Shown: positions 3,785-26,063, numbered from the stretch's first letter. The stretch: 26,063 nucleotides of DNA from an archaeon (GCA_035390665.1 DAOOUC010000009.1:1-26063), one strand, 5' to 3'. Notes: generated by a model from the letters alone, not told the origin. Translations and numbers: made by a program.

Positions 3785-5338
3785 ATGAATGTGCTTTTTG
3801 TAGCATTCCCAAATCATCCACTTCTCCCCCCGAATGTGGAAATAGAAAAGAACAAAAAACCTAACAGAAAAAATAAACAAAAGAAAGAATTGCTATTCTC
3901 TAGCATCCCATTTTTTCTATCTTCTTCTTTTGCTTTTGATTTCTTATATCTTGATTCTTTTGCTTTTTCTGAAATTATTTCCAAGAAACCAGAAATAATA
4001 ATAATGGATATTTCTTTCTTTAAAGAACTTGGAGAAGACTATCTTAATAATTATTATAGAATCGTACAAAAAATTAAAGAAACAATTCCAGACACAAAAA
4101 TAATAACCATATCTAATAAGGAAAATAAAGATTGTCAAAACCTCTTTGTTTATGATATTAAGGACAAAGAAAAAACCATTTGTAAAGATTTCAAAAAATA
4201 TCTTAAAAATCTAAAGATTAAATTGCCAGAAAGTTCTTTTAATTTATACAATATAGTCAAGGAAAAATTTGACTTGTGTGTTGTCCAAGATTTAGTGTGT
4301 TTTTCTAATCATATAGAAACTTATAAACATCCGGGACTTGATTTTTTTTATTTTTTTAATTATACAGCAGATTTTGATTTTGATCTATTATCTGAGATAT
4401 CATATAGAATTGAACTCTCCTTTGAGGACATGATATCTAAAAATCTAGAGATTTTACCTAAAACCGGGTGTGTGGAAATAATTTGCCTTTTTAATTTAAA
4501 TGAAAAAAATAAAATTGAATTGCAAAATAAGATAAAGATTATTTCTCAAATAAAAAATAAACTAAATTTAAAATTTAAGATAATACCTGAATGTAAAAAT
4601 AACAAAAATCTAATTGATGTATTAAATTTATTGGATTACGTTAAAATTGATTATCAAATAACTAAAAATCAATGTCCTGGTTCTAATCAAAACATTTTAT
4701 TTTCATTAGTTGAATGCTTTAAAGATTGTATACCTGAAACTAAAGATCTAAAGAAAAGACTAACATTAGATATTTATTCTATTTCACAAAATATTACTCT
4801 TGAAAATCTTGTAAATGCAATCTTTGAATTAGATAATCAATATATGGATATTTATCTAGATCTTATTCATCTGTTTGATGGATATTTTACTACAGAAGAA
4901 ATAATTGGTTATCTTATAAAATTACATCCAAGACACACAAAAGAAGAAATAGATTCTGAGACACAAAAATGTATTCTATTTTTAGAAAAGAAAAAATTAA
5001 TTACAAAGGACAAGGATTATCAGACAAAACCAAAACTAAATAATAATTTTAAACTAAAAAGTGTATTACCTCAAAGAACAGAATTGCAATTATTATACTC
5101 TGGTTCAGAAAAAGGATACTTTATGATTAATACAAAACTTAAATTAAAAGATTTGGAAAAAATATCTAAAGATTTATTTTTCTTTTTTATTTTTTCAAAA
5201 GGAATATATTATATTAGAGAAGTTTCTGAAAAATTGCATCTTATTCTAGGAGACTGTGTTGAGTTTAGTAAAGATAATTATATTAAAACAACAGGCAAGA
5301 TTTATCAAACATTAAAAAGATATAAACTTTGTAAATGA
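3785..5338 (+). CDS. Orphan 517-aa protein. Possible degenerate B12-binding/radical-SAM-like scaffold (no Fe-S Cys motif) with a PqqD-like winged-helix segment
   Basis: Long ORF with a well-placed TATA box. N-terminus 'VLFVAFPNHPLLPP...KPEIIIMDISFF...IVQKIKETIPDTKIITISNK' resembles the N-terminal Rossmann-like domain of class-B radical SAM proteins. No CxxxCxxC motif is present. Residues about 355-406, 'LFDGYFTTEEIIGYLIKLHPRHTKEEIDSETQKCILFLEKKKLI', resemble PqqD/RRE domains. Function unknown. Confidence 0.45.
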   Translation: MNVLFVAFPNHPLLPPNVEIEKNKKPNRKNKQKKELLFSSIPFFLSSSFAFDFLYLDSFAFSEIISKKPEIIIMDISFFKELGEDYLNNYYRIVQKIKETIPDTKIITISNKENKDCQNLFVYDIKDKEKTICKDFKKYLKNLKIKLPESSFNLYNIVKEKFDLCVVQDLVCFSNHIETYKHPGLDFFYFFNYTADFDFDLLSEISYRIELSFEDMISKNLEILPKTGCVEIICLFNLNEKNKIELQNKIKIISQIKNKLNLKFKIIPECKNNKNLIDVLNLLDYVKIDYQITKNQCPGSNQNILFSLVECFKDCIPETKDLKKRLTLDIYSISQNITLENLVNAIFELDNQYMDIYLDLIHLFDGYFTTEEIIGYLIKLHPRHTKEEIDSETQKCILFLEKKKLITKDKDYQTKPKLNNNFKLKSVLPQRTELQLLYSGSEKGYFMINTKLKLKDLEKISKDLFFFFIFSKGIYYIREVSEKLHLILGDCVEFSKDNYIKTTGKIYQTLKRYKLCK

Positions 5339-9042: not shown

Positions 9043-9555
9043 TTAAGCAACGCCAATATACATTCTTATTCTCTGTTTAATTTTTAGAATATTATCTAAA
9101 TAAATATTTAATTTTTTTTCAATTAAACTCATTTGTTCTTCTGCATCTTTTATTTGCCCTGCAACAAAGAAACTTTCAGAACCTAAGCCATTATATTTTA
9201 ATAGTTCTTTTCTTAAGTCTAAATATTCTTTTAAAGTATAATAATATGCTGTGTAATTTTCATATAATCTATTAAATAAAACTCTTGTTGTATCGTCTTT
9301 GAAAAATCTTCTGCCGTCTATTTCAAAATAATTTTTTGTTTTTGCACCAAGACTATTATTATTTACAACATTGTTTACTGTTTCTAAATGTTCTTCAATC
9401 CATTCTGTGTTTTTAGATCTAAAATCACATCTTTTTATTACAGCAGAATCAGACATCTTTTTTGTTTCTTTAACAATTGATTCATCAATTTCTACTTCTT
9501 CGCCACCTGAAATTTTTTTAAATATTTTTTTAAGAACTGTTATCATTTTAGTCAC
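9043..9555 (-). CDS. Orphan 170-aa protein, no recognisable motifs
   Basis: ORF only. The track start at 9555 is GTG and an in-frame ATG is at 9546. A TATA-like TTTTATATAA lies on the minus strand (plus coordinates 9574-9583). Predicted soluble, helical C-terminal half. Confidence 0.45.
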   Translation of the reverse strand: MTKMITVLKKIFKKISGGEEVEIDESIVKETKKMSDSAVIKRCDFRSKNTEWIEEHLETVNNVVNNNSLGAKTKNYFEIDGRRFFKDDTTRVLFNRLYENYTAYYYTLKEYLDLRKELLKYNGLGSESFFVAGQIKDAEEQMSLIEKKLNIYLDNILKIKQRIRMYIGVA

Positions 9556-12023: not shown

Positions 12024-12716
12024 TTATATAAACTTTAATTTAAAGAACAATAAATAAGATATGGAAACCATTAAAAGATATAATATAGATTTAATTAGAT
12101 TCCAAGAAAGTAAATAATATAAATATTGACTTTTTAATGCTTGACTTGTAAACATCTGTGCAATATATGGAGTCAAGAATGTAAAAAATGAAAACAAAGT
12201 AAATACAGTTTCAATAACAAAAACAATTAAAACTATCTTAAATATTGTTTTTATAACTTTTTTAAACTGGAGATTGTGTTTTGCAGACTCTAATCCCATA
12301 TATACAAATGCCCCAATGTTTATACACAATAAAACAATTGAAAACATTAAGAAAAATAAACTATCTTTTGCTAAGTTTACATAATAGGGATTAAGATTAC
12401 TGTATACTGCGAATTGTAAAGAAAAATCCAAAATTAATGTAACAAATAATAAAACAAAAGGAACCCATAAATAATTATAATATCCGTCTTTAGAAAAGAT
12501 AGACTGTATAAATGTAGAATTATTTTTTTGAGAATCTAATTTTGGTGCCCTTAAATAATATTCTGTTTGAGCAGGAATTGTTTCTTTAACAAATCCGTTT
12601 CTATTTGGTTTATCTGCTTTATTTTTGGTTATGTGTGGTGTTATCTTTTTTGTTCGCTTAACGTTTTTATTATCATATCTATTATTTGGATATTTATTTG
12701 TTCTTTTTACAGGCAT
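12024..12716 (-). CDS. Polytopic membrane protein with a long basic N-terminal tail (230 aa), function unknown
   Basis: About 60 Lys/Arg/Asn-rich residues, then 4-5 hydrophobic segments. No catalytic motif recognised. Confidence 0.5.
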   Translation of the reverse strand: MPVKRTNKYPNNRYDNKNVKRTKKITPHITKNKADKPNRNGFVKETIPAQTEYYLRAPKLDSQKNNSTFIQSIFSKDGYYNYLWVPFVLLFVTLILDFSLQFAVYSNLNPYYVNLAKDSLFFLMFSIVLLCINIGAFVYMGLESAKHNLQFKKVIKTIFKIVLIVFVIETVFTLFSFFTFLTPYIAQMFTSQALKSQYLYYLLSWNLIKSILYLLMVSISYLLFFKLKFI

Positions 12717-16123: not shown

Positions 16124-16621
16124 TTAATGTCCAAACTTACTAAATAATATCTTATGGCAAAAATATCTTGTAAGAAACATTAAAAGAGAAGAAATAATAT
16201 TAGCTAAAAGATAACCCATATTATATCTTTCTACAAATATTACTAATATTATTAGATTTAAAATAATTGTAATTATAGATATGCTAAAATATAAAAAAGT
16301 AAACAAACTACTTGCTTTCTTTTGATTTTTCGTTCTTTCTTTTACTATGTATTTTTTATTTAAAAGATAATTTACATAAATTCCTGCAGTTATTCCAACT
16401 CCTGCAGAAAATAAATAAAATAATCCAAGTTCTGTTAAGATTACAAGAATAACAAGATGAACTAAAGTTCCTATTAAACCTAAAGTCGCATACTTAAGAA
16501 ACATTTTATTACTATAAAATATAGAATAACTTGTTAGTTGATAATATACTGAATGAAAGAAATCCGTTTTCTTTTTTGTTAATAAAGTATCTCTAAATGA
16601 TATTTTTTTTCTTTTAAACAT
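16124..16621 (-). CDS. GtrA-like small membrane protein (lipid-linked glycan translocation family)
   Basis: About 4 TM segments with the GtrA-type pattern 'LKYATLGLIGTLVHLVIL...' and a basic loop 'KKYIVKERTKNQKK'. The size is typical of the family. Confidence 0.65.
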   Translation of the reverse strand: MFKRKKISFRDTLLTKKKTDFFHSVYYQLTSYSIFYSNKMFLKYATLGLIGTLVHLVILVILTELGLFYLFSAGVGITAGIYVNYLLNKKYIVKERTKNQKKASSLFTFLYFSISIITIILNLIILVIFVERYNMGYLLANIISSLLMFLTRYFCHKILFSKFGH

Positions 16622-16681: not shown

Positions 16682-18091
16682 ATGGTTTCTATTACTATTT
16701 ATATTATGAATACTAATTTTGAAAATCAACTTGATCTTATTAAAAGATATTTAGATTCTAAAAGTCTTGATTATTATGATATTAGACTAGAAAATACTAC
16801 GTCTAATAGAATAGCAATCGAGAACAAAATAGTAAAAGATATTGGAATTAATTCTGTTAGTGGAGTTGGAATTAGAATTATAAAAAATGGAAAGCTTGGA
16901 TTTTGTTCAAGTAATAATATTGATAACTATAAACAAATAATTGATGATTGTATCTCTAATCTTAAAGGAATTGATACTAAAACTAAGTTTAAAAACTTTG
17001 CAGAAAATAAAGACAAAGTTAAAACTAAATTTACTGATTTTGAAAACAAGACTATTGATGAAAAAACAAAAGGATTACTTACAATTAACAATAAAACACT
17101 AAAATCAAAAACCAAATATAAAATACTACAATCAAATATTACTTATCTTGAAAAACTTAAACAAAAATACTTTGTAAATCCTAATTCTTTTATTTATCAA
17201 GAACAGCCACATGTTATTTTTTATTCTATGATTACTGGAAAGTCTGGAAAAACTATTGAAAATAATATGGAGAGGTTTGGAGCTTTTGGTGGTCTTGAAA
17301 AATCAGATTTTTCTGTGTTTGATGGGCTTGTTAAGAAAAACATAGCTGGAGTTTCAGAATTACTTTTAGCTAAACCTTGCCCTGCTAAGAAAACAGACAT
17401 AATATTAACACCTAACTTGGTTGATCTTTTAGCACATGAAGCCATTGGCCATGCTTCTGAAGGAGATGCTGTTACTAATCATTCTTCTGTTTTAAAACTT
17501 GGACAAGTACTAACTGAAAATAAAGAAATAACAATTGCTGATAATCCAACAATTAAAGAATTTGGGCATTATGTTTATGATGATGAAGGAATAAAAGCAA
17601 GAGAGAAAACAATTGTTAAGAAAGGAATTGTTAGTGATTATCTTCTGGATATTGAATCTGCAACTAAACTTGGTATGAAATCTAACGGAAATGCCAGAGC
17701 TGAAAGTTTTTCCTCTAAACCAATTGTTAGAATGAGTAATACTTATTTCTTAGAAGGAAAAGAAAAACTTGATAGCATACTAAAAGACTTTAATGGCTAT
17801 CTTCTTGACGGCTTTGCTGGTGGACAAGTTGATCCAAGTGTTGGAACTTTTATGTTTGGAATCAAGAAAGCTTATGAGTATAGAAATGGAAAAAAGATTG
17901 GAACTTTTAAACAAGCCTCAATTTCTGGTAATATCTTAGATTATCTAAAGAATGCTAGTGCAGTAACAAACAAGATAGGAGAATTTGGATTTGGATTCTG
18001 TGGAAAAGATGGGCAGACTGCTTTTGTTTCTGGCTCTGGTCCACATATTAAAATTGATAATGCTGTATTAGGGGGAACCAAACATGAGTAA
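16682..18091 (+). CDS. tldD: TldD-type metallopeptidase (PmbA/TldD family, catalytic subunit)
   Basis: 'HEAIGHASEGD' (HExxxH...E) plus C-terminal Gly-rich 'GFCGKDGQ...SGSGPHIKI'. TTTATATA at 16651-16658 is about 27 nt before the ATG. Confidence 0.9.
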   Translation: MVSITIYIMNTNFENQLDLIKRYLDSKSLDYYDIRLENTTSNRIAIENKIVKDIGINSVSGVGIRIIKNGKLGFCSSNNIDNYKQIIDDCISNLKGIDTKTKFKNFAENKDKVKTKFTDFENKTIDEKTKGLLTINNKTLKSKTKYKILQSNITYLEKLKQKYFVNPNSFIYQEQPHVIFYSMITGKSGKTIENNMERFGAFGGLEKSDFSVFDGLVKKNIAGVSELLLAKPCPAKKTDIILTPNLVDLLAHEAIGHASEGDAVTNHSSVLKLGQVLTENKEITIADNPTIKEFGHYVYDDEGIKAREKTIVKKGIVSDYLLDIESATKLGMKSNGNARAESFSSKPIVRMSNTYFLEGKEKLDSILKDFNGYLLDGFAGGQVDPSVGTFMFGIKKAYEYRNGKKIGTFKQASISGNILDYLKNASAVTNKIGEFGFGFCGKDGQTAFVSGSGPHIKIDNAVLGGTKHE

Positions 18092-19379
18092 GGAAATATT
18101 TGATTTATGTCAAATAATAGCACGAGAAGAAAAAGTTGAGTTTCTTTATAGTGATGGATATTCTAAGAATATTAGAATAAATGGATTTGGTCTCTCAAAG
18201 ATTAGTAATCAAGAAGCTTCTGGTCTTTTGATTAGAGTTATTGTTAATGGTTATTCTGGTTTTACAACAATAACAAACATAACTGAAAAAAACATAAGAA
18301 TTGGAATAGATAAGGCTAAGAGAATTGCAAAACTTAAGAAAGGAACAAAAATTGTTGATTTTGGAAATAATGTTTCCAAAATAAAAACAAAACAAGACAA
18401 AGACATTCTTAATTTTGATATCTCTAGTAAATTTAAAGAAATTAAAAGTAACCTAACTAAAGAAAAACACATTAAAAGCTATGAAGGCGGATTAACTTGG
18501 AATAAAGGATATTCTTTTTATATTAACCCTTATACCTTTAAAGAAGACCTTCATGCAGTTACTTCCTTTGGGCTTATGGTTAACACTTTAGATAAGAGGC
18601 CATCTAGTGCTTCAGCATCACAAGTTTTTACAAAAGTAAAAGACATTGATTATGTTTCTGTTATTGATGAGGCTAAAAAAGAAGCAAAAACTACTTTAAA
18701 TCCTAAACAAGGAGAAAAAGGAGAATATGATTTAATATTTAGTTTTGATGCAACTGCTAGTATTCTTTCTAGTTTTATAATTCACCCAACTATTGGAGAA
18801 CTAATGTTTAAGAAACAAAGTTATCTTTCTAGTAGTCTTGGTAAATCTGTTTTTTCTAAGAACCTAACAATTACTGAAGATCCTTTTTTAGATTATTTTT
18901 CACACTCAGAAAGTATTGACGATGAAGGATTTAAGACAAGCAAGAAAGACATAATAAAGAACGGAAAATTTAATACATCCATTTACGATCAAGAATATTC
19001 TATTCTAGCTGGAAAGAAACCAACAGGTAATGGCTTTAGAGACGGGATTTATTCTCCAGTAACTTGTAACTTTACAAACCTTGTTGTCTCTCCAGGTAAG
19101 ACAAAGAAAGAAGACATTATCTCTAAGACTAAAAAAGGAATATATGTCTATGACGTGATGGGGATACACACAAGCAACATGACAAGTGGGGAATTCTCAT
19201 TAACCATTAATTCTGGAAAAGAAATAATTAATGGGAAATATAAAGACACAATCACTAACCTTAACTTTACTGGAAATGCTAGTGAGATGTTTAAGACACT
19301 TGAGATGTCAAAAGAACTGAAATTCTTTGGTTCTGCGATTGTTCCTGAGATGGTAATCCCTAAGGTCAAATTAATTTAA
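18084..19379 (+). CDS. pmbA: PmbA/TldE-type partner subunit (no HExxxH)
   Basis: Same fold signature ('GIYVYDVMGIHTSNMTSGEFSL', 'DDEG') without the metal-binding motif. Its ATG overlaps the tldD stop (ATGAGTAA). Confidence 0.85.
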   Translation: MSKEIFDLCQIIAREEKVEFLYSDGYSKNIRINGFGLSKISNQEASGLLIRVIVNGYSGFTTITNITEKNIRIGIDKAKRIAKLKKGTKIVDFGNNVSKIKTKQDKDILNFDISSKFKEIKSNLTKEKHIKSYEGGLTWNKGYSFYINPYTFKEDLHAVTSFGLMVNTLDKRPSSASASQVFTKVKDIDYVSVIDEAKKEAKTTLNPKQGEKGEYDLIFSFDATASILSSFIIHPTIGELMFKKQSYLSSSLGKSVFSKNLTITEDPFLDYFSHSESIDDEGFKTSKKDIIKNGKFNTSIYDQEYSILAGKKPTGNGFRDGIYSPVTCNFTNLVVSPGKTKKEDIISKTKKGIYVYDVMGIHTSNMTSGEFSLTINSGKEIINGKYKDTITNLNFTGNASEMFKTLEMSKELKFFGSAIVPEMVIPKVKLI

Positions 19380-19395
19380 ATAAAAATGATTTACA

Positions 19396-20340
19396 GTGAT
19401 AGACAAATTAATTTCAAATTACTATCTAACAAAATATAAATTTTATTCTTTTTTAAAAGGAATAAAGATTATTAGGAATAACAATTATTTCACGCTTATT
19501 AAAAATAACAAAAAATTAATTGTTAAGAAAAAAGAACTAACTTGGAGAAATCCATTAACTATTAAAAATAATTTTGATAAAATAAAAGTGGAATATAAGA
19601 ATCTAAACCAGGCAATTAATCTTTTTGATAAACTTTTTTCTTATTCTGTTTCTAAAACAGAAATTGATTTAACAAAAGACTTTGAAATTAATTTTTTCGG
19701 AAAAACTATCACCACTGATTTTGAACAATTTAAAGAAATAGAATATGGAATCTTGTGGTATAATAAACACTATAAACTAAAAGTTGGAGATGTTGTCTTT
19801 GATCTTGGAGGATATCACGGACTCTATTCGATTTTTGCATCATCTGTCGTTGGACCTAATGGAAAGATTTATTGTTTTGAGCCAGACAAAGACAATTTAG
19901 AAATCTTAAATAAAAATATTAAAGATAATAATTTAAAAAACATAATTGTAGAACCATTTGCAATCTCTAATAAAACCGGAGAAACCCAATTTTTTAAAAG
20001 AGGGCACGGGTCAAGAATTGTATCCTCTGACTTTAAAACAAACACAAAAAACGCAATAATCACAATCCGAACAATAAGACTATCAGACTATATAAGAAAC
20101 AACAAAATCCAGAAAATTGACTTTATCAAAGCAGACATAGAAGGAGCAGAGATTGAATTTGTTGAAGACTATCTAAAAAATATTTTGCCACTTGATATAA
20201 AGCCACGCATGGCAATAGCAAGTTATCACTACAGAAAAGACCTTGGCACAAACACCAGTAAACAAATTGCAAAAGAATTTAAAGACAAAGGAATAAAAGT
20301 AAATATAGGGAACCAAAAACACCTATGTGTTTTTGTTTAA
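19396..20340 (+). CDS. FkbM-family SAM-dependent methyltransferase
   Basis: 'VVFDLGGYHGLYSIFAS...GKIYCFEPDKDNLEILNKNIKDNNLKNIIVEPFAISNKTGETQFF...IDFIKADIEGAE' matches the FkbM signature. The only start in this frame is GTG at 19396, with no in-frame ATG before the catalytic core. Confidence 0.8.
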   Translation: MIDKLISNYYLTKYKFYSFLKGIKIIRNNNYFTLIKNNKKLIVKKKELTWRNPLTIKNNFDKIKVEYKNLNQAINLFDKLFSYSVSKTEIDLTKDFEINFFGKTITTDFEQFKEIEYGILWYNKHYKLKVGDVVFDLGGYHGLYSIFASSVVGPNGKIYCFEPDKDNLEILNKNIKDNNLKNIIVEPFAISNKTGETQFFKRGHGSRIVSSDFKTNTKNAIITIRTIRLSDYIRNNKIQKIDFIKADIEGAEIEFVEDYLKNILPLDIKPRMAIASYHYRKDLGTNTSKQIAKEFKDKGIKVNIGNQKHLCVFV

Positions 20341-20344
20341 TAAA

Positions 20345-21070
20345 TCACAACTTTTTTGCAACAATAATCATTGATGGAGAAAAATACTTGTTAGGCCATT
20401 TTATAAAAAAATTGATAATTCTAGCAATTATACTTAATGGATAAACTATTAATTTTGTTAATATGTTTTTATCTTTAATATCTTTCAATCCAAAATATAT
20501 GGTATTATAATAGTTGGCATATATTATTTTTAAATTCTCTTTTTCAATAATAATTTTAAGTTTCTCTAGATCCATAATTTCTAAATTGTGATTAAAAAGT
20601 GTTTTTCTATCAAAAAGATAATAGAACCAATATGTGGCATATCTGAAATTAGGAATTTCTAAAACTAAATAACCTTCTTTTTTAATTAAATCTATTTGTT
20701 TTTTAATTATTTTTTCAGGATTATGAAAATGTTCTATAAATCCAAAAGAACACACTACATCAAATTGAATACGAGGACTCCATTTAAAAAAATCAGATTT
20801 ATATAACTTATAATCCTTAACTCTATTATAATCTAAATTATTTTTTGTAAATCTAATTTTTTCACTATAATCTATACCATAAACTTTATATTTAAATATT
20901 TTGTTAAAATAAATCATATAATTCCCGGGAACACACCCTATTTCTAAAAAAGTTTTTTTTGTTTTTGGTAAATATCTATATAATATGTCACTATAAAGCA
21001 CAGTTTCTACTCTTTTTTTACTTAGCCCAGACCAATATCCGTCCCAATAATTTTTAGTTGTTAGTTTCAT
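20345..21070 (-). CDS. Class I SAM-dependent methyltransferase
   Basis: Motif I 'FLEIGCVPGN', 'VYGIDYS', and post-I/II 'FDVVCSFGFIEHF'. Confidence 0.75.
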   Translation of the reverse strand: MKLTTKNYWDGYWSGLSKKRVETVLYSDILYRYLPKTKKTFLEIGCVPGNYMIYFNKIFKYKVYGIDYSEKIRFTKNNLDYNRVKDYKLYKSDFFKWSPRIQFDVVCSFGFIEHFHNPEKIIKKQIDLIKKEGYLVLEIPNFRYATYWFYYLFDRKTLFNHNLEIMDLEKLKIIIEKENLKIIYANYYNTIYFGLKDIKDKNILTKLIVYPLSIIARIINFFIKWPNKYFSPSMIIVAKKL

Positions 21071-21076
21071 TTTTAT

Positions 21077-22048
21077 TTACCTTAAAGTGTTATTAAAAAA
21101 AGAAATATCTTTATTTTTAATTTTCTTTAAATTAATTAAAACATAAAATTGTGCACAAAATAGATACCAAATATTTTTTAAATTAAAATTAAATAAATAT
21201 ATAATAAAATTTTTCAATATTCTTCCGAATTTACTCCAAATAAATATTAAGGTGTTCTCGAAATACCCTCCAAAATGAATATTAAATAAATATATATCGT
21301 AAACGGCTTCCATATATATTAAATCTTTTTTTGGCATTCTCACATTTGTTGTACCTTCGTGAAAATAACGCGCCTTTCCGGTTAAAAACAAAGTATTTGG
21401 ATATTTTTTATATATTCTGTGAGATAAATCAATATCTTCGTTCCAACAATATTTCTTTAAATTATTATCCGGTTTTATTTTTAACAATATGCTCTTTTTG
21501 AATGTAGATTGCCCAGATAACCACATACAAGGAATTATCTTATTTTTTATATTTAATGGATAAGTATTTCCTAAAGACGGCCACAAATTACAATAATCAT
21601 TAGTATTTGCTGATATTAAGAATATACGATTATATATCTTTGTTATTTTATTTAATAATGCGTTTTTCCTTTTGATAGTATTAAACCCCATAACCCCTAA
21701 TGCGTCCGAGTTTTTATCAAATACTTCTAATATAAATTTATAATAATCCTTTTCAATAATCATATCATCATCTATAATGGATATTAAATTGCCTTTTGCT
21801 AACTGTATGCCCTTGTTTTTTCCAACAGTTAAACTATTTTCATCAGATTCTACATATATGATATTAATTTTTTGTGCGCGCTTATCTAATTTAATCTTCT
21901 TACATAGATTTTTAACAAATTCTAATTTGCCATTATCTATTATTATTAATTCCTTTGGCAGAATTGTTTGATTCAAAATTGCATATATACAATCTTCTAA
22001 TTCTTTTTGTCTTTTATAGGTTACTATTATCGTAGTTATAGAATACAT
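21077..22048 (-). CDS. Family 2 glycosyltransferase with a C-terminal hydrophobic tail
   Basis: 'TTIIVTYKRQKELEDCIYAILNQT...LIIIDNG', DxD 'IIDDDMI', and hydrophobic C-terminal segments. Confidence 0.85.
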   Translation of the reverse strand: MYSITTIIVTYKRQKELEDCIYAILNQTILPKELIIIDNGKLEFVKNLCKKIKLDKRAQKINIIYVESDENSLTVGKNKGIQLAKGNLISIIDDDMIIEKDYYKFILEVFDKNSDALGVMGFNTIKRKNALLNKITKIYNRIFLISANTNDYCNLWPSLGNTYPLNIKNKIIPCMWLSGQSTFKKSILLKIKPDNNLKKYCWNEDIDLSHRIYKKYPNTLFLTGKARYFHEGTTNVRMPKKDLIYMEAVYDIYLFNIHFGGYFENTLIFIWSKFGRILKNFIIYLFNFNLKNIWYLFCAQFYVLINLKKIKNKDISFFNNTLR

Positions 22049-22049
22049 A

Positions 22050-22808
22050 TTAATACTTCCAAATCAAATAAATTATTTTATAATATCTATAATTTTTTTC
22101 AGTTAATGGCTCTAATTTTATTTTAGAAATTTCATATTTCTTAAAAAAAAGAGAAGATAATTTATCTTTTAAAATTTCTTTATTCAAAAATTTAGTTCTT
22201 AATATATTTAAAGTTTTATTGGACAAATTAAATGTTTTAAAAATTTTTCGAGCCTTATTTTTAAATATAGTAAAAATCGTTTCTTTTTTAATTAAAAAAA
22301 CGCCATAAATTTCTAGATTATTATATTCTTTTTTAAGGTCTATAGGATTATAATAATATTTTCCCAAATCGCTTTTTTTAAATCCATCTTCGCGAAAAGC
22401 ATTGGGAATTTCTACAATTATTGTTCCATTAGAATTTAACCTTTTCTTTGCATTTTTAAGAAATTTATCCAATTTAATGTACTGTAATACTTGCATTGCT
22501 GAAATTACATCATATTTTCGTTTGTGTTTAAATTTTAGAAAATCGCAACATTCAAAATCAATTTTATTTGCATTTTTTTTAGAAATATTTTTTTTAGATT
22601 CTAATATATTTTCTTTATCGATATCAATAGCGTATATTTTCTTAATATTTTGATTTAACAAATAGTTTAATCCTAATCCGGATCCACACCCTACATCTAA
22701 AAGAGTTTTATCTTTAGAATATCTTTTAATTAATTCATACCTTTTTCCAATAATTTGTAATTCTTCTTTAGTATATGCTCGATTAATTGTCTCGGCTTCT
22801 AAACCCAT
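22050..22808 (-). CDS. Class I SAM-dependent methyltransferase
   Basis: Motif I 'LLDVGCGSGLG', 'IYAIDID' and 'YDVISAMQVLQYI'. Confidence 0.8.
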   Translation of the reverse strand: MGLEAETINRAYTKEELQIIGKRYELIKRYSKDKTLLDVGCGSGLGLNYLLNQNIKKIYAIDIDKENILESKKNISKKNANKIDFECCDFLKFKHKRKYDVISAMQVLQYIKLDKFLKNAKKRLNSNGTIIVEIPNAFREDGFKKSDLGKYYYNPIDLKKEYNNLEIYGVFLIKKETIFTIFKNKARKIFKTFNLSNKTLNILRTKFLNKEILKDKLSSLFFKKYEISKIKLEPLTEKNYRYYKIIYLIWKY

Positions 22809-22812
22809 TATA

Positions 22813-23961
22813 TCACTTCTTTTTGTAAAAATTTTGTATTATCTTAATTACATAATCTATTTGTTTATTTGCTAATTCAGGATACATTGGCAAAGAAATT
22901 ACTTCATTGGATATCTTTTCAGTAATAGGAAGTTTAAATTTATGTAATTCTGTTAATGCCTTCTGTTTATGATTTGGTATTCTCCAAGAAACTATTGTTT
23001 CCACACCACTTTTATTTAAATAATCATTTAACTTATCTCTTTTACCGTCTTTTACTCTTATCACATAATTTTGGTAAACATCATAATAATCTCCATTACT
23101 TGGTGCAGGAGGACAAACTATTTCTTTTAATCTTGATAATTCTTTATTATATCGGTTTGCAATCTCTCTTCTTCGTTTTATTGCTTTATCAAAATGTTTT
23201 AATTTAATTAGTAAAAATGCCGCATCCTTATTATCTAAAATAGAATTACCACCAATACAATGAATGTCTTTAGGGTCTGCCTTAATATTAAACATTCTTT
23301 GTACATATCCTGGGTATAATCCGTGATCTCTTAGTAAATATAATTTTTTCGCAAGCTCTTTATCTGTAGTTATTGCCATCCCGCCTTCTCCTTGAGAACC
23401 CAATACTTTTGCTGGGTAAAAACTATAACAACTAACATCTCCATAATGTCCTTTGCCTTTAAATTTAGCACCCGCGGCTTGTGCAGAATCTTCAACTACA
23501 AATAAATTATACTTTTTTGCAATTTTCATTATTTTTTCCATATTACACATTCTGCCATTTAAGTGAACTGGAATTATTGCTTTTGTTCTTTTAGTTATTA
23601 CTTTTTCAATTAGAGATTCATCCATGTTGTGATCTGTTTCTTTAACATCTATTAAAACTGGTGTTGCCCCCAATCTGCAGATGACGTCAATTGTAGCTAC
23701 AAATGTGTGAGACACAGTTATTACTTCATCTCCTGGACCTATGCCTCTAGCCCATAACGCGATATGTAATGCACCAGTACAACTGTCTGTACCTATACCA
23801 TATTTTGAATCATTCATTTTAGCTAGTTTATCTTCAAAATCTTGTAATTCTTTTTGAAAAATATAAGCACCTCTTTCATCACAACTACTATATGCCTTAT
23901 CAAATTCTTTTTTGTGATCTTTATATTGTTTTATGTATCCTACGAATGGAACTTTATACAT
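22813..23961 (-). CDS. DegT/DnrJ/EryC1/StrS-family PLP-dependent NDP-keto-sugar aminotransferase
   Basis: 'GTDSCTGALHIAL', 'DEVITVSHTFVAT', 'VVEDSAQAAGA', and 'SFYPAKVLGSQGEGG' (the catalytic Lys region). Confidence 0.9.
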   Translation of the reverse strand: MYKVPFVGYIKQYKDHKKEFDKAYSSCDERGAYIFQKELQDFEDKLAKMNDSKYGIGTDSCTGALHIALWARGIGPGDEVITVSHTFVATIDVICRLGATPVLIDVKETDHNMDESLIEKVITKRTKAIIPVHLNGRMCNMEKIMKIAKKYNLFVVEDSAQAAGAKFKGKGHYGDVSCYSFYPAKVLGSQGEGGMAITTDKELAKKLYLLRDHGLYPGYVQRMFNIKADPKDIHCIGGNSILDNKDAAFLLIKLKHFDKAIKRRREIANRYNKELSRLKEIVCPPAPSNGDYYDVYQNYVIRVKDGKRDKLNDYLNKSGVETIVSWRIPNHKQKALTELHKFKLPITEKISNEVISLPMYPELANKQIDYVIKIIQNFYKKK

Positions 23962-23962
23962 C

Positions 23963-25933
23963 TTAATCTCCTTTAAATTTTTTTAAAATTATATTTTTTA
24001 TTTTTTCAGAGTTAACAAAATATTCTTTCTCTAAAATTGAATTTGCTGGAGCTGGCGTGTCTGGTAAACATAATCTATAAATTGGATTTTTTAATTTCTT
24101 AAAAACTTCGCTTTCAGAAATCACTGCTGCAACTTCACTAGAAAAACCATTTGTTTTCCAACCGCCATCTACAATTAATACATTCTTTGTTTTACTTACT
24201 GAGTTAATTATTGTTTTTTTATCTAATGGTTTAATGGTTCTTACATCTATTATTTCACAAGATGCATTTTTTAATTCATTTGTGGCTTTTAGACACTCTG
24301 TAACTAAATATGAATTCGATATAATGGTTAAATCAGTCCCTGTTTTTACAATTTTTGCTAAACCTATTGGAATTTGTGGAGTGTTTATAGGAACTTTTGA
24401 CTTTGTATTATATAACCATTTATCGTCTATTAAGATTACTGGATTTGGATCATCAACTGATGAAACTAACAATCCGCTTACATCTGTTGCATTACTTGGC
24501 GCGACTACTTTTAATCCAGGAACATGCGCAAACATGCCATGTAATGATTGAGAATGTTGAGCACCCTGCTCCCCGCCGCGATTAATTATTGCTTGTATCG
24601 TTATGTTACAACTTAATCTGTCACCAAACATATAATTCCAATTAGATGCTAAATTAATTAATGGATCAAACGATAAATACATAAAATCGTGCCTTGCTTG
24701 TATCAATATAGGTTTTGTCCCAGAAAGACCTGCGCCTACACAAATTCCTGTAACTGCATTTTCTGAAATTGGGCAATCTATAATTCTATTCTCACCATAT
24801 TTTTTTATTAATCCATTAACACAACCACCAACATACCATGGACTTTTGATACCTATACCTATCAGGAAAGTATTTTTGTCTTTATTTAACAGAAAATCAT
24901 AAGTATCTCTTATTGCTTGTTCATAAGTTTTTTCTATTTGTTTTAAATTTCTTTTTTCTTTTGGAATTTTTGAAATATTTGAAAAAACATCTTTATAAGT
25001 GTCCTCAGGATTTGGCTTTGGTGCTTTCTCTGCCCAATTTATAATTTTGTCAATTTTTGAATATAGTTTATTATATCTTTCATCTATTTCTTTATTAGAA
25101 ATATTATATTTTTTTTGTAAATTCTTTATAGGGCATTTACTTATCCAGTAGTCTAATTCTTTTTTACTCCTTAACCCCATATCTAAATCGTTGTTTGGAC
25201 CAACATGTCCCCTTATTCTGTAAGTTATTGCTTCTATAAATATTGGACCTTGCCCTTTTGCAATTAATTTCTTTGCTTTTTTAAAAGTATTACTCACTTC
25301 CTCTACATTGTTTCCATCAATCAAAAAAGAGATTATCCCAAAAGATCTTGCTTTTTTACAAAGGTCAGTATCTGCAAATATACTTTTTAGTGGCATGTGA
25401 GTACTGTATCCATTATTTTCGCAAACTAAAACAAATGGCAATTTGTGTATTTTTGAAAAATTAAGAACTTCATAAACTATCCCTTCATTCATTGCGCCAT
25501 CTCCCACAAAAGAAACGGCAATGTTTTTTTGTTTTTTTATTTTATTTGCAAGCGCAACTCCTGCTCCTAGTGCTGGAGAACTACCTACAATTGCAGAACT
25601 ACCAAAAAAACCCATTTCTGGATATATTAAATGCATGCTTCCGCCTTTTCCTCGAGAACATCCCAATTTACTTGTAAAAATCTCTGCAGTAATGCCTTTT
25701 ATGTCGTTTGTTTTTGCAAGATAATGAGCATGTGATCGGTGATTACTAAAAATAATATCGTTTTTACTTAAATTAGAACAAACACCTACCGCTATTGCTT
25801 CTTCTCCTTCAGCTAAATGAACAGGTGTTTTTATCTTTTTATTTTTAGATAAATCTGCAATTCTGTTTTCAAAACACCTAATTAAGATCATCTGATCTAA
25901 ATAATTAATTATTTCTTTTTTTATTTTAGTCAT
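23963..25933 (-). CDS. Single-chain fusion of ThDP-dependent 2-oxoacid dehydrogenase E1 alpha and E1 beta modules
   Basis: N-terminal half: 'HLAEGEEA', 'GKGGSMH', and the ThDP motif 'GDGAMNEG...ENNGYS'. C-terminal half: 'DCPISENAVTGICVGAGLSG', 'GAQHSQS', 'PGLKVVAPS', then a transketolase-C-like end. The start is set at the ATG at 25933 (MTKIKKE), which overlaps the upstream gene's stop by 8 nt. The track start at 25960 would overlap by 35 nt. Confidence 0.85.
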   Translation of the reverse strand: MTKIKKEIINYLDQMILIRCFENRIADLSKNKKIKTPVHLAEGEEAIAVGVCSNLSKNDIIFSNHRSHAHYLAKTNDIKGITAEIFTSKLGCSRGKGGSMHLIYPEMGFFGSSAIVGSSPALGAGVALANKIKKQKNIAVSFVGDGAMNEGIVYEVLNFSKIHKLPFVLVCENNGYSTHMPLKSIFADTDLCKKARSFGIISFLIDGNNVEEVSNTFKKAKKLIAKGQGPIFIEAITYRIRGHVGPNNDLDMGLRSKKELDYWISKCPIKNLQKKYNISNKEIDERYNKLYSKIDKIINWAEKAPKPNPEDTYKDVFSNISKIPKEKRNLKQIEKTYEQAIRDTYDFLLNKDKNTFLIGIGIKSPWYVGGCVNGLIKKYGENRIIDCPISENAVTGICVGAGLSGTKPILIQARHDFMYLSFDPLINLASNWNYMFGDRLSCNITIQAIINRGGEQGAQHSQSLHGMFAHVPGLKVVAPSNATDVSGLLVSSVDDPNPVILIDDKWLYNTKSKVPINTPQIPIGLAKIVKTGTDLTIISNSYLVTECLKATNELKNASCEIIDVRTIKPLDKKTIINSVSKTKNVLIVDGGWKTNGFSSEVAAVISESEVFKKLKNPIYRLCLPDTPAPANSILEKEYFVNSEKIKNIILKKFKGD

Positions 25934-26063
25934 ACATTTTGAACCATTTAGTATATTCATTCAACCCTTTTTCAATATCATATTTAGGAGTCCACCCCAA
26001 TAATTTATTTGCTTTAGAAAAATCAGCAACTAACTGGTGGACTTCTCCAATTCTTGCAGAGAC
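25926..26063 (-). CDS. C-terminus of an NAD-dependent NDP-sugar epimerase/dehydratase (partial; continues beyond the window)
   Basis: Hand translation: VSARIGEVHQLVADFSKANKLLGWTPKYDIEKGLNEYTKWFKMYD*. The pattern 'D.SKA...LGW.P......GL..T..W' is typical of SDR-type sugar epimerase/4,6-dehydratase C-termini. Confidence 0.6.
   Translation of the reverse strand, partial: VSARIGEVHQLVADFSKANKLLGWTPKYDIEKGLNEYTKWFKMYD

Follow-up and report, generated by a model that had tools for sequence, protein, structure and literature searches.

Pairs of proteins resembling the alpha and beta subunits of the E1 component of 2-oxoacid dehydrogenases occur in actinomycete antibiotic pathways, where they act as thiamine diphosphate (ThDP) enzymes without the lipoyl acyltransferase (E2) and dihydrolipoamide dehydrogenase (E3). 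The pairs TxnB3/TxnB4, KstD7/KstD8, AviB1/AviB2, Pau11/Pau12 (= Plm8/Plm9) and EvdU5/EvdS3 have been proposed to take a C2 unit from pyruvate and attach it to a 4-keto sugar (PMC5659172, PMC4753412, PMC4802897, PMC10338323). Here we analyse a gene at the end of a 26,063-nucleotide stretch of archaeal DNA (GCA_035390665.1, DAOOUC010000009.1:1-26063; the window), which encodes both E1 halves in one chain and lies between the genes of a nucleoside diphosphate (NDP)-sugar short-chain dehydrogenase/reductase (SDR) and a DegT-family aminotransferase. By analogy with the actinomycete pairs, the fused protein probably builds an undescribed branched sugar.

In the trioxacarcin pathway, TxnB3/TxnB4 were proposed to place a C2 chain from pyruvate on a 4-keto sugar, and deletion of txnB4 abolishes the 4-C-acetyl branched octose; TxnB3 is a homologue of KstD7, and its step has been equated with that of avilamycin (AviB1) (PMC5659172). 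The same C2 transfer was proposed for Pau11/Pau12 (PMC4753412, PMC4802897), and EvdU5/EvdS3 were still termed hypothesised in 2023 (PMC10338323). Reductases, transaminases or oxygenases act on acetyl branches in later steps (PMC9306805); Pau7, which reduces the acetyl branch of paulomycin, is an aldo-keto reductase (AKR) (PMC4753412). This kind of enzyme is already known, but genetically only, and from a handful of actinomycete antibiotic pathways. Like the window gene with its SDR, the actinomycete genes lie beside that of an NDP-sugar dehydratase or decarboxylase. They differ from it in encoding two subunits rather than one chain, in serving an antibiotic rather than a surface glycan of a DPANN host, and in having a ketoreductase as partner where the window has a coupled DegT; the conserved DegT coupling is a feature outside the precedent.

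A comparable reaction is performed by the acetolactate synthase (ALS)-type enzymes YerE, ErwE and MyGE, which act on CDP-4-keto-3,6-dideoxyglucose for Gram-negative and mycobacterial lipopolysaccharides: ThDP-dependent acyloin addition, in which a carbanion derived from a 2-oxo acid is joined to a nucleotide keto-sugar of a surface-glycan pathway, followed by a carbonyl-processing enzyme (PMC9306805). However, their TPP_enzyme_N/M/C fold (flavoprotein type) is unrelated to the E1_dh, Transket_pyr and Transketolase_C modules of the window protein, whose only match to the YerE-type architecture is a weak TPP_enzyme_C hit of 23 bits over the ThDP motif. With the alpha2beta2 E1s of pyruvate dehydrogenase (PDH), branched-chain 2-oxoacid dehydrogenase (BCKDH) and acetoin dehydrogenase the protein shares the fold, the domain order, the ThDP/Mg motif, the activating Glu and both catalytic His, but it has no partner E2 or E3 gene nearby, stays below NCBIfam cutoffs and has an altered outer loop. 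Transketolase and deoxyxylulose phosphate (DXP) synthase are single chains with the same three-module order, the latter being a pyruvate-dependent carboligase; the window protein does not reach the NCBIfam cutoff of either (109.9 bits vs 488 for transketolase, 94.3 vs 466 for DXP synthase). Fused E1s of Vibrio, Photobacterium and Paracoccaceae are likewise single chains of about 670 aa, 33–36% identical to it, but they fall into the E2-linked group of our trees, bear its signatures and have an adjacent E2 gene; they are similar to the systems of the QncN/QncL type, in which a C2 unit is loaded on an acyl carrier protein (ACP). A conserved cluster of AMP-ligase, E1, E2 and carrier-protein genes, with the E1 fused or split (1259 aa in L054), was observed in these taxa at the loci L004, L024, L054, L057, L061, L069 and L072, at L004 together with a pyruvate phosphate dikinase (PPDK)-like gene; it looks like a system loading a 2-oxo-acid-derived acyl unit on ACP.

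Membership in an E2-less branch of the E1 family

The open reading frame (ORF) at 23963..25960 on the minus strand (665 aa) is intact and comprises both the E1 alpha and the E1 beta modules. Since an ATG at 25933 gives an 8-nt overlap with the stop of the upstream gene (ATGACTAA) and coincides with the N-termini of homologues, the alignment of which shows M1 as nearly invariant, the 656-aa form is preferred. A preliminary description of the locus had read both E1 halves in one ORF of 656–665 aa; a profile search bore this out, the Pfam domains E1_dh, Transket_pyr and Transketolase_C following in order (Table 1), and the motifs quoted at the time, GDGAMNEG...ENNGYS and HSQS (within AQHSQS), are indeed present in the translation. 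In alignments, alpha-His252, beta-His469 and the Glu of ISENA coincide with catalytic residues of solved E1s, the beta residues having been aligned against G. stearothermophilus and human E1 beta; the alpha-His of the outer loop corresponds to the His preceding phosphoserine site 1 of human E1 alpha. The closest solved chain to the alpha half is human PDH E1 alpha (3.5e-41). None of the relevant NCBIfam cutoffs was reached: PDH_E1_alph_y gave 278.7 bits over residues 15–326 (curated cutoff 393.85), the E1 beta subfamily model 263.5 bits over residues 345–658 (cutoff 321) and the E1 beta equivalog 239 bits (cutoff 454). An AF2 model of the single chain had a pLDDT of 88.4 and a pTM of 0.89; its beta half superposed on solved E1 beta chains with TM values of 0.92–0.94 (human PDH E1 beta, 0.93), and structural alignment of the full chain with transketolase gave a TMq of 0.65–0.68. 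The same fused ORF is present in a second assembly (L087) and in two 93%-identical relatives (L088, L089); the fusion is real and not an assembly artefact. A 105-aa ORF antisense within the E1 gene (24234–24551, plus strand) is most likely a chance ORF.

Scanning one genome per species yielded 80 loci, in which ORFs were called, neighbours were marked with seed proteins and split alpha and beta subunits were joined. A neighbour-joining tree of 85 E1s (full length) split a clade of 16 from all others with a bootstrap of 200/200 (the window protein, L001, L002, L060, L085, L007, L033, L009, L011, L010, L005, L013, L014, L008, L012 and L006); 85–93 E1 sequences were taken into the trees. Against a hidden Markov model (HMM) of this clade from which it had been left out, the window protein reached 811 bits; the HMM of the E2-linked E1s gave it 661 bits. 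Its 120 best database matches, all of about 670 aa and fused, comprised 92 members of the E2-less clade and 28 of the E2-linked group, with no ambiguous case. As the clade spans 27–70% G+C, base composition is not its source. Judged by these placements, the protein is a member of an E2-independent branch of the E1 family. A single-chain version in an archaeal glycan operon had been taken to imply a C-branched or acylated sugar and was not known to be characterised; the archaeal fusion stands, but the form is common (92 of the 120 best matches, and hence at least 92 relatives in public metagenomes) and the clade is widespread in bacterial polysaccharide loci, so fusion is not what makes the locus notable. 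Since both groups hold fused and split forms, too, novelty by fusion was ruled out. Surface-glycan loci with clade members were found in Planctomycetota, Verrucomicrobiota, Cyanobacteria, Bacteroidales, Desulfovibrionales and others, in addition to the archaeal locus.

The clade retains the ThDP motif, together with the activating Glu and the two catalytic His residues. Positions conserved in 85–96% of the E2-linked enzymes are replaced in it, and further positions are fixed in its members only. Its members have [KR][TCS]PxHL where E2-linked enzymes have GFxHL, lack Trp172 of AALWKLP, and possess an outer loop of the type H[VC]GPxxDxxxGYR, three residues longer than the GHSxxDPxxYR of the E2-linked group. 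The Glu of the beta GEDVG motif is lost, Arg423 within HxRxDF is invariant, and GRGWGQ or NRGGEQ directly precedes the beta catalytic His. At the positions of E599 (VVxEE) and D624 (LDAP), acidic in 93% of the E2-linked enzymes, the window protein has Gly and Lys; in the alignment the LDAP position equals Glu285 of G. stearothermophilus E1 beta, a putative contact of the subunit-binding domain of E2; a literature search for the E1 beta residues touching this domain gave no hits, and none are named in PMC2663715. All of the E2-linked-specific residues, i.e., GHSxxDP, the Trp of AALWKLP, the Glu of GEDVG and the acids of VVxEE and LDAP, are thus replaced in the window protein and its clade. The outer loop of PDH E1 that follows the alpha-His takes on an ordered form for its contact with the lipoyl domain, and carboligation side reactions may be suppressed by it (PMC2663715); the rebuilt loop would fit a different second substrate.

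The preliminary description had noted no E2 or E3 gene nearby, and neither was found. Pfam scans detected no lipoyl, 2-oxoacid_dh or pyridine-nucleotide-disulfide-oxidoreductase domain in any ORF of the window or of L088, and there was no E2 or E3 in a further 10 kb upstream in L088. Searching with E2 and E3 by tblastn gave no match in 336 kb of clade loci (all glycan-locus clade members then in hand, excluding L096/L098, L097 and L099–L103), and E2 was found in every control. Within 10 kb of the E1, an E2 gene was absent from all 16 of the original clade members, in contrast to 54 of 69 other E1s with an adjacent E2.

A tblastn search of plasmids revealed clade members on two Streptomyces plasmids and in a sugar cluster on pDMC1 of Solidesulfovibrio magneticus RS-1. 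With the Streptomyces alpha subunit as query, TxnB3 of S. bottropensis (P0298), an E1 alpha from Micromonospora okii (P0259), which produces kosinostatin, and an S. rochei protein (P0250) were retrieved; the three are 61–66% identical to one another. In an alpha-only tree, TxnB3, the M. okii protein and the window protein fell into the E2-less clade with a bootstrap of 178/200; together with the 200/200 of the full-length tree, the phylogeny that had been suggested as a check places the window protein apart from the PDH, BCKDH and acetoin types. TxnB3 and the M. okii E1 alpha bear the alpha signatures (RTPxH, no Trp172, EHVGP outer loop), and TxnB3 scored 413 bits against the clade HMM and 335 bits against the E2-linked HMM, a difference of 78 bits, with actinomycetes left out of both models. 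Because the identity of the window alpha half to TxnB3 (34–35%) is not above that to the best E2-linked E1 (38%), the placement rests on trees, profiles and signature motifs. The precedent is represented in the trees by TxnB3 alpha and its homologues only, AviB1/B2, Pau11/12, AlmDI/DII and all beta subunits being set beside it by description only. The actinomycete precedent invoked in the preliminary description is supported, with limits: the clade links the window protein to TxnB3, but the role of DegT is not explained by the precedent, and the evidence found for the actinomycete enzymes themselves is genetic.

Gene context in the archaeal operon and in related loci

On the minus strand, the SDR gene, cut by the window edge, is followed by the genes of E1 alpha-beta, DegT, a methyltransferase, a GT2 glycosyltransferase and another methyltransferase, with junctions of −8, 1, 4, 1 and 6 nt; the first two confirm the tight coupling between sugar SDR and DegT that had been described. 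The full 315-aa SDR orthologue (L088, 9061–10008) matches GDP_Man_Dehyd of Pfam with 257 bits and the NCBIfam models RmlB, LegB and GalE with 212, 208 and 197 bits, all under cutoff; it carries the motifs SSSEVYG and YGVSK, and its closest solved chains are Pal (6bwl) and UDP-glucuronate decarboxylase. A Glu in the S-x-E motif is typical of SDRs that release, or pass through, a 4-keto intermediate. The upstream SDR is hence a putative 4-keto-sugar-forming enzyme by family, motif and context. In DegT, the lysine binding pyridoxal phosphate (PLP) is kept (SFYPAKVLG). The closest solved chain of DegT, 7b0d (301 bits), carries a generic name only; it is followed by the C-3 aminotransferases QdtB, WbpE, DesV and WlaRG, and C-4 enzymes come next. 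NCBIfam ranks PseC first, and a single-sequence AF2 model of DegT had a pLDDT of 38.

Within the subclade of the window protein (bootstrap 196/200), DegT always comes after E1. The window DegT is 41–49% identical to the DegTs beside the E1 of L001, L002, L060, L085 and L080, and 27–31% identical to those of other subclades, suggesting that DegT co-evolves with E1 across the subclade. Archaeal-type loci (the window, L088 and L001) have the order SDR-E1-DegT-methyltransferase, and SDR-E1-DegT with overlapping or 1-nt junctions is conserved in the window, L088, L089 and L001. The bacterial loci of the subclade (L002, L060, L080, L085) comprise a PglC-like transferase, E1, DegT and a PglF-like UDP-GlcNAc 4,6-dehydratase. 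Such a dehydratase adjoins E1 in L002, L080, L085, L100, L101 and L102; in L100 and L102 it lies directly beside a fused E1 and there is no aminotransferase. These dehydratase-only loci make it likely that E1 has a keto sugar, and not an amino sugar, as its partner. Bac_transf, an AKR and a fused E1, again without an aminotransferase, are encoded at L099 (7047–10046), L101 (6011–9070) and L103 (146–3823), which are planctomycete-type polysaccharide loci with a small Bac_transf gene and have the AKR where the window's subclade has DegT. This alternation of DegT and AKR suggests that the partner enzyme may process the carbonyl created by branching.

More distant subclades occur in heptose-nucleotide clusters with SDRs, Zn-dependent alcohol dehydrogenases (Zn-ADH) or short-chain reductases (L005, L006, L008, L012, L091 and the locus of P0018), with GHMP kinase, DegT and SDR genes (L013, L014, L097), or with small GT2, GtrA and radical S-adenosylmethionine (SAM) genes (L007, L009, L010, L011, L033). 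P0092 (L005, 10001–12877) is a 958-aa triple fusion of NTP_transferase, a sugar-phosphate nucleotidyltransferase, with E1 alpha and E1 beta. It sits in a heptose-nucleotide cluster together with a B12-radical SAM gene, a split transketolase and a flagellin gene, and the locus may be a flagellin-glycosylation island. In Synechococcus and a relative, heptose-type clusters (L006, 14188–15960, and the locus of P0018) encode both an E1-type and an ALS/YerE-type ThDP enzyme, and each adjoins an FkbM methyltransferase. At L097 on pDMC1 of the cultured bacterium S. magneticus RS-1 (record 23314–33320), genes for GT2, radical SAM, NUDIX and kinase proteins, E1 alpha, E1 beta, a GDP-fucose-synthase-like protein, DegT, an SDR and a nucleotidyltransferase were identified; the RefSeq name of the E1 beta is only "transketolase C-terminal domain-containing protein".

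The two members on Streptomyces plasmids have other neighbours. L096 (11998–14044) adjoins genes for a 1103-aa condensation-domain protein, an ACP, a phosphopantetheinyl transferase (PPTase) and a type II polyketide synthase (PKS), and L098 (11950–14024) adjoins those for an ABC transporter, an AMP-ligase, a TrpA-like protein and an acyl-CoA dehydrogenase. These neighbourhoods are not sugar-related, ruling out that the plasmid pairs belong to deoxysugar clusters.

Proposed sugar branching and competing explanations

The reading we favour, with moderate confidence, is that the fused E1 would be a single-chain carboligase that works without lipoyl groups or E2 and has a nucleotide-activated keto-sugar as its substrate. 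The upstream SDR would oxidise an NDP-hexose at C-4 and dehydrate or decarboxylate it to an NDP-4-keto sugar, as its family, motif and context suggest. Its conserved cofactor-binding and catalytic residues and its pyruvate-type similarity point to the fused E1 as an enzyme that would form the hydroxyethylidene-ThDP enamine by decarboxylating a 2-oxo acid, in all likelihood pyruvate; pyruvate is favoured since the best profile and structure matches are pyruvate-type E1s, which is weak evidence. Consistent with the TxnB3/TxnB4 clade membership and the gene context, the enamine would attack the sugar carbonyl rather than a lipoyl group, giving a C-acetyl-branched tertiary alcohol. DegT would then convert a carbonyl of the branched intermediate to an amine, most economically the side-chain ketone, resulting in a 1-aminoethyl branch; in the sister bacterial loci, a 1-hydroxyethyl branch would result from the AKR that stands in place of DegT. 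Modification of the sugar and its transfer to a surface glycan would fall to the neighbouring methyltransferases and glycosyltransferases. That E1 and DegT make a 4-C-(1-aminoethyl)-branched, possibly methylated deoxy-sugar of an undescribed class, carried on a DPANN surface glycan, is put forward tentatively, as a product that is possible but doubtful.

Several points weigh against such a pathway, besides the modest identity to TxnB3. The trees were built by neighbour joining only. The absence of E2 and E3 holds for the loci searched, with the rest of the archaeal genome (E2, E3 and lipoylation genes) outside the search. The SDR is in a near-tie between GalE (197 bits) and RmlB (212 bits). 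Moreover, the clade is not exclusively sugar-related, as its Streptomyces plasmid members lie beside PKS, non-ribosomal peptide synthetase (NRPS)-like or fatty-acid-type genes; clade membership alone thus indicates E2-independent carboligase-type chemistry, and the sugar acceptor proposed for the window protein rests on gene context. To our knowledge, all characterised DegT relatives aminate ring carbons, so that amination of a side chain would be unprecedented; the closest solved relatives after 7b0d are C-3 aminotransferases. Ring positions are further targets of AKRs in deoxysugar pathways, which leaves the exchange of AKR for DegT open to another reading. In the searchable literature there was no in vitro reconstitution of an E1-type branching enzyme, the precedent consisting of knock-outs and proposals (PMC5659172, PMC4802897, PMC10338323), and no relevant paper on E1-like genes in loci for O-antigens, capsules or archaeal glycans came out of a literature search.

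Within the same sugar-nucleotide pathway, ThDP chemistry other than C-4 acetylation seems rather unlikely, yet has evidence of its own. The E1 might supply an acyl group to an amine made by DegT, replacing a PglD-type N-acetyltransferase; it might form a larger branch from a 2-oxo acid that is longer or functionalised, possible donors including the 2-oxoglutarate or pyruvate that DegT releases; or it might branch the sugar at C-3 or extend an aldehyde carbon. At L002, L060, L085 and L080, the E1 indeed lies within a PglC-like/DegT/PglF-like module, with no acetyltransferase among the genes scanned around it; C-3 aminotransferases are among the closest solved relatives of DegT; heptose-type loci carry both an E1-type and an ALS-type ThDP enzyme; and branching enzymes of the ALS type accept functionalised C4–C8 2-oxo acids (PMC9306805). 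However, to arrive at acetyl-ThDP, N-acylation from pyruvate would need an oxidant, for which there is no gene nearby. Since the E1 loci L099–L103 lack an aminotransferase, having the PglF-like dehydratase with the fused E1 (L100, L102) or a reductase (L099, L101, L103), an amine is not the general acceptor, and a role as a simple PglD replacement donating N-acetyl groups was down-weighted on account of these loci. The best profile and structure matches, moreover, are to pyruvate-type E1s, not to branched-chain or 2-oxoglutarate types.

Retention of the E1 fold and of all catalytic residues would also be expected of an ordinary E1 of a pyruvate, acetoin or branched-chain dehydrogenase complex, whose E2 and E3 are encoded elsewhere (the searches having covered the loci) and whose sugar-related neighbours are there by chance; fused E1 alpha-beta proteins with an adjacent E2, at 33–37% identity, do exist. 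This is very improbable for a protein that is separated from the E2-linked group with 200/200 support, prefers the clade profile by 150 bits, stays under every NCBIfam equivalog cutoff (279 vs 394 for alpha, 263 vs 321 for beta), lacks residues conserved in 93–94% of the E2-linked enzymes, takes part in an SDR-E1-DegT order with tight junctions conserved over four loci, and belongs to a clade with no E2 or E3 in 336 kb of its loci. Hardly any weight is given, either, to a free-standing decarboxylase or acyloin synthase that forms acetaldehyde or acetoin, in metabolism or in order to pull the DegT reaction by consuming its 2-oxo acid, and leaves the sugar untouched. DegT does release a 2-oxo acid, and E1 enzymes catalyse such side reactions (PMC2663715; PMC7696235), but the NTP_transferase-E1 fusion, the pairing with a dehydratase in aminotransferase-free loci and the clade link to TxnB3/TxnB4 would be left unexplained, the loss of txnB4 specifically removing the branched sugar. 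A phosphonate (PepM/Ppd) pathway was ruled out, as no phosphoenolpyruvate (PEP) mutase is present and Ppd has a different ThDP fold.

The window, its host and wider implications

Table 1. Positions of the fused E1 gene, its modules and motifs, and the other genes of the operon, in window coordinates
Feature	Position	Strand	Evidence
Fused E1 alpha-beta ThDP enzyme	23963..25933	-	ORF translation, Pfam, NCBIfam, AF2 model
E1 alpha module (E1_dh, residues 24-316 of the 665-aa ORF)	25013..25891	-	Pfam PF00676, 204.5 bits, 2e-60
ThDP/Mg-binding motif GDG(X)25ENN, residues 153-183	25412..25504	-	Translation; alignment columns invariant
Outer active-site loop GHVGPNNDLDMGLR, residues 251-264	25169..25210	-	Alignment to human E1 alpha; clade signature
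E1 beta pyrimidine-binding module Transket_pyr, residues 345-518	24407..24928	-	Pfam PF02779, 4e-21
Catalytic His motif AQHSQS	24545..24562	-	Inside the Transket_pyr module, alongside the cofactor-activating Glu (ISENA)
E1 beta C-terminal module Transketolase_C, residues 534-654	23999..24361	-	Pfam PF02780, 113 bits, 1e-32
3' end of extended-SDR NDP-sugar enzyme, cut by window edge	25926..26063	-	Tail translation
DegT/DnrJ/EryC1-family PLP aminotransferase	22813..23961	-	Pfam, 339.8 bits; starts 1 nt past the E1 stop
SAM-dependent methyltransferase	22050..22808	-	Pfam Methyltransf_31/11/23; L088 orthologue 46% identical
GT2 glycosyltransferase	21077..22048	-	Pfam PF00535
Second SAM-dependent methyltransferase, final operon gene	20345..21070	-	Pfam Methyltransf_23/31

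With a G+C content of about 27%, the window encodes GatD, GatE, an XPD helicase, MetRS and a TldD/PmbA pair, as detected by Pfam scans. The named relatives of GatD are from DPANN archaea (Iainarchaeum, 57% identity; Aenigm-, Micr- and Woesearchaeota, 46–50%). The host is assigned to the archaea by GatD/GatE and XPD, and to DPANN by the relatives of GatD. A third SAM-dependent methyltransferase gene (19396–20340, plus strand) clusters with the two of the operon, one of the three being of the FkbM type, which suggests a heavily methylated glycan.

Beyond the window edge, the corresponding region of L088 and L089 encodes, in order, DUF354, an AsnB-like amidotransferase, a heparinase II/III-like protein, a Zn-ADH/GFO-IDH-MocA oxidoreductase, a UDP-GlcNAc 2-epimerase, a GT1/GT4 glycosyltransferase and, directly before E1, the 315-aa extended SDR. 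The position of the window's GT2 gene is occupied in L088 (13893–15113) and L089 by an unrelated 406-aa GT4-like gene between syntenic flanks; this is a strain-level glycosyltransferase swap inside the operon. Just outside the operon, a GtrA-family membrane protein (16124–16621, minus strand) is encoded between GatD and the TldD/PmbA pair (16682–19379, plus strand); GtrA genes also lie near the E1 genes of L011. Three window ORFs had no Pfam match: 3785–5338 (plus strand, 517 aa), 9043–9555 (minus strand, 170 aa) and 12024–12716 (minus strand, 230 aa).

The E2-less clade that contains TxnB3 extends from actinomycete antibiotic pathways to archaeal and many bacterial surface-glycan loci, and it is recognisable by simple sequence signatures together with the absence of E2. 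Its members are currently annotated as pyruvate, acetoin or 2-oxoisovalerate dehydrogenases, an annotation that misleads metabolic reconstruction, most severely in DPANN genomes, where such a gene would be taken for central carbon metabolism. C-branched sugars, possibly amino-branched ones, are predicted in glycans in which none have been sought. If the proposed pathway is true, polysaccharide repeat units in Bacteroidales, deltaproteobacteria and Nitrosospira, where the partners are PglF/PglC-like, would likewise begin with an aminoethyl-branched sugar, and the sister loci with AKR would make its 1-hydroxyethyl (N-acetyl-yersiniose-like) analogue. Since a single chain spares the co-expression of two subunits and a cultured host, S. 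magneticus RS-1 (pDMC1), exists, the clade could enable a first in vitro reconstitution of this chemistry and provide new biocatalytic carboligases.

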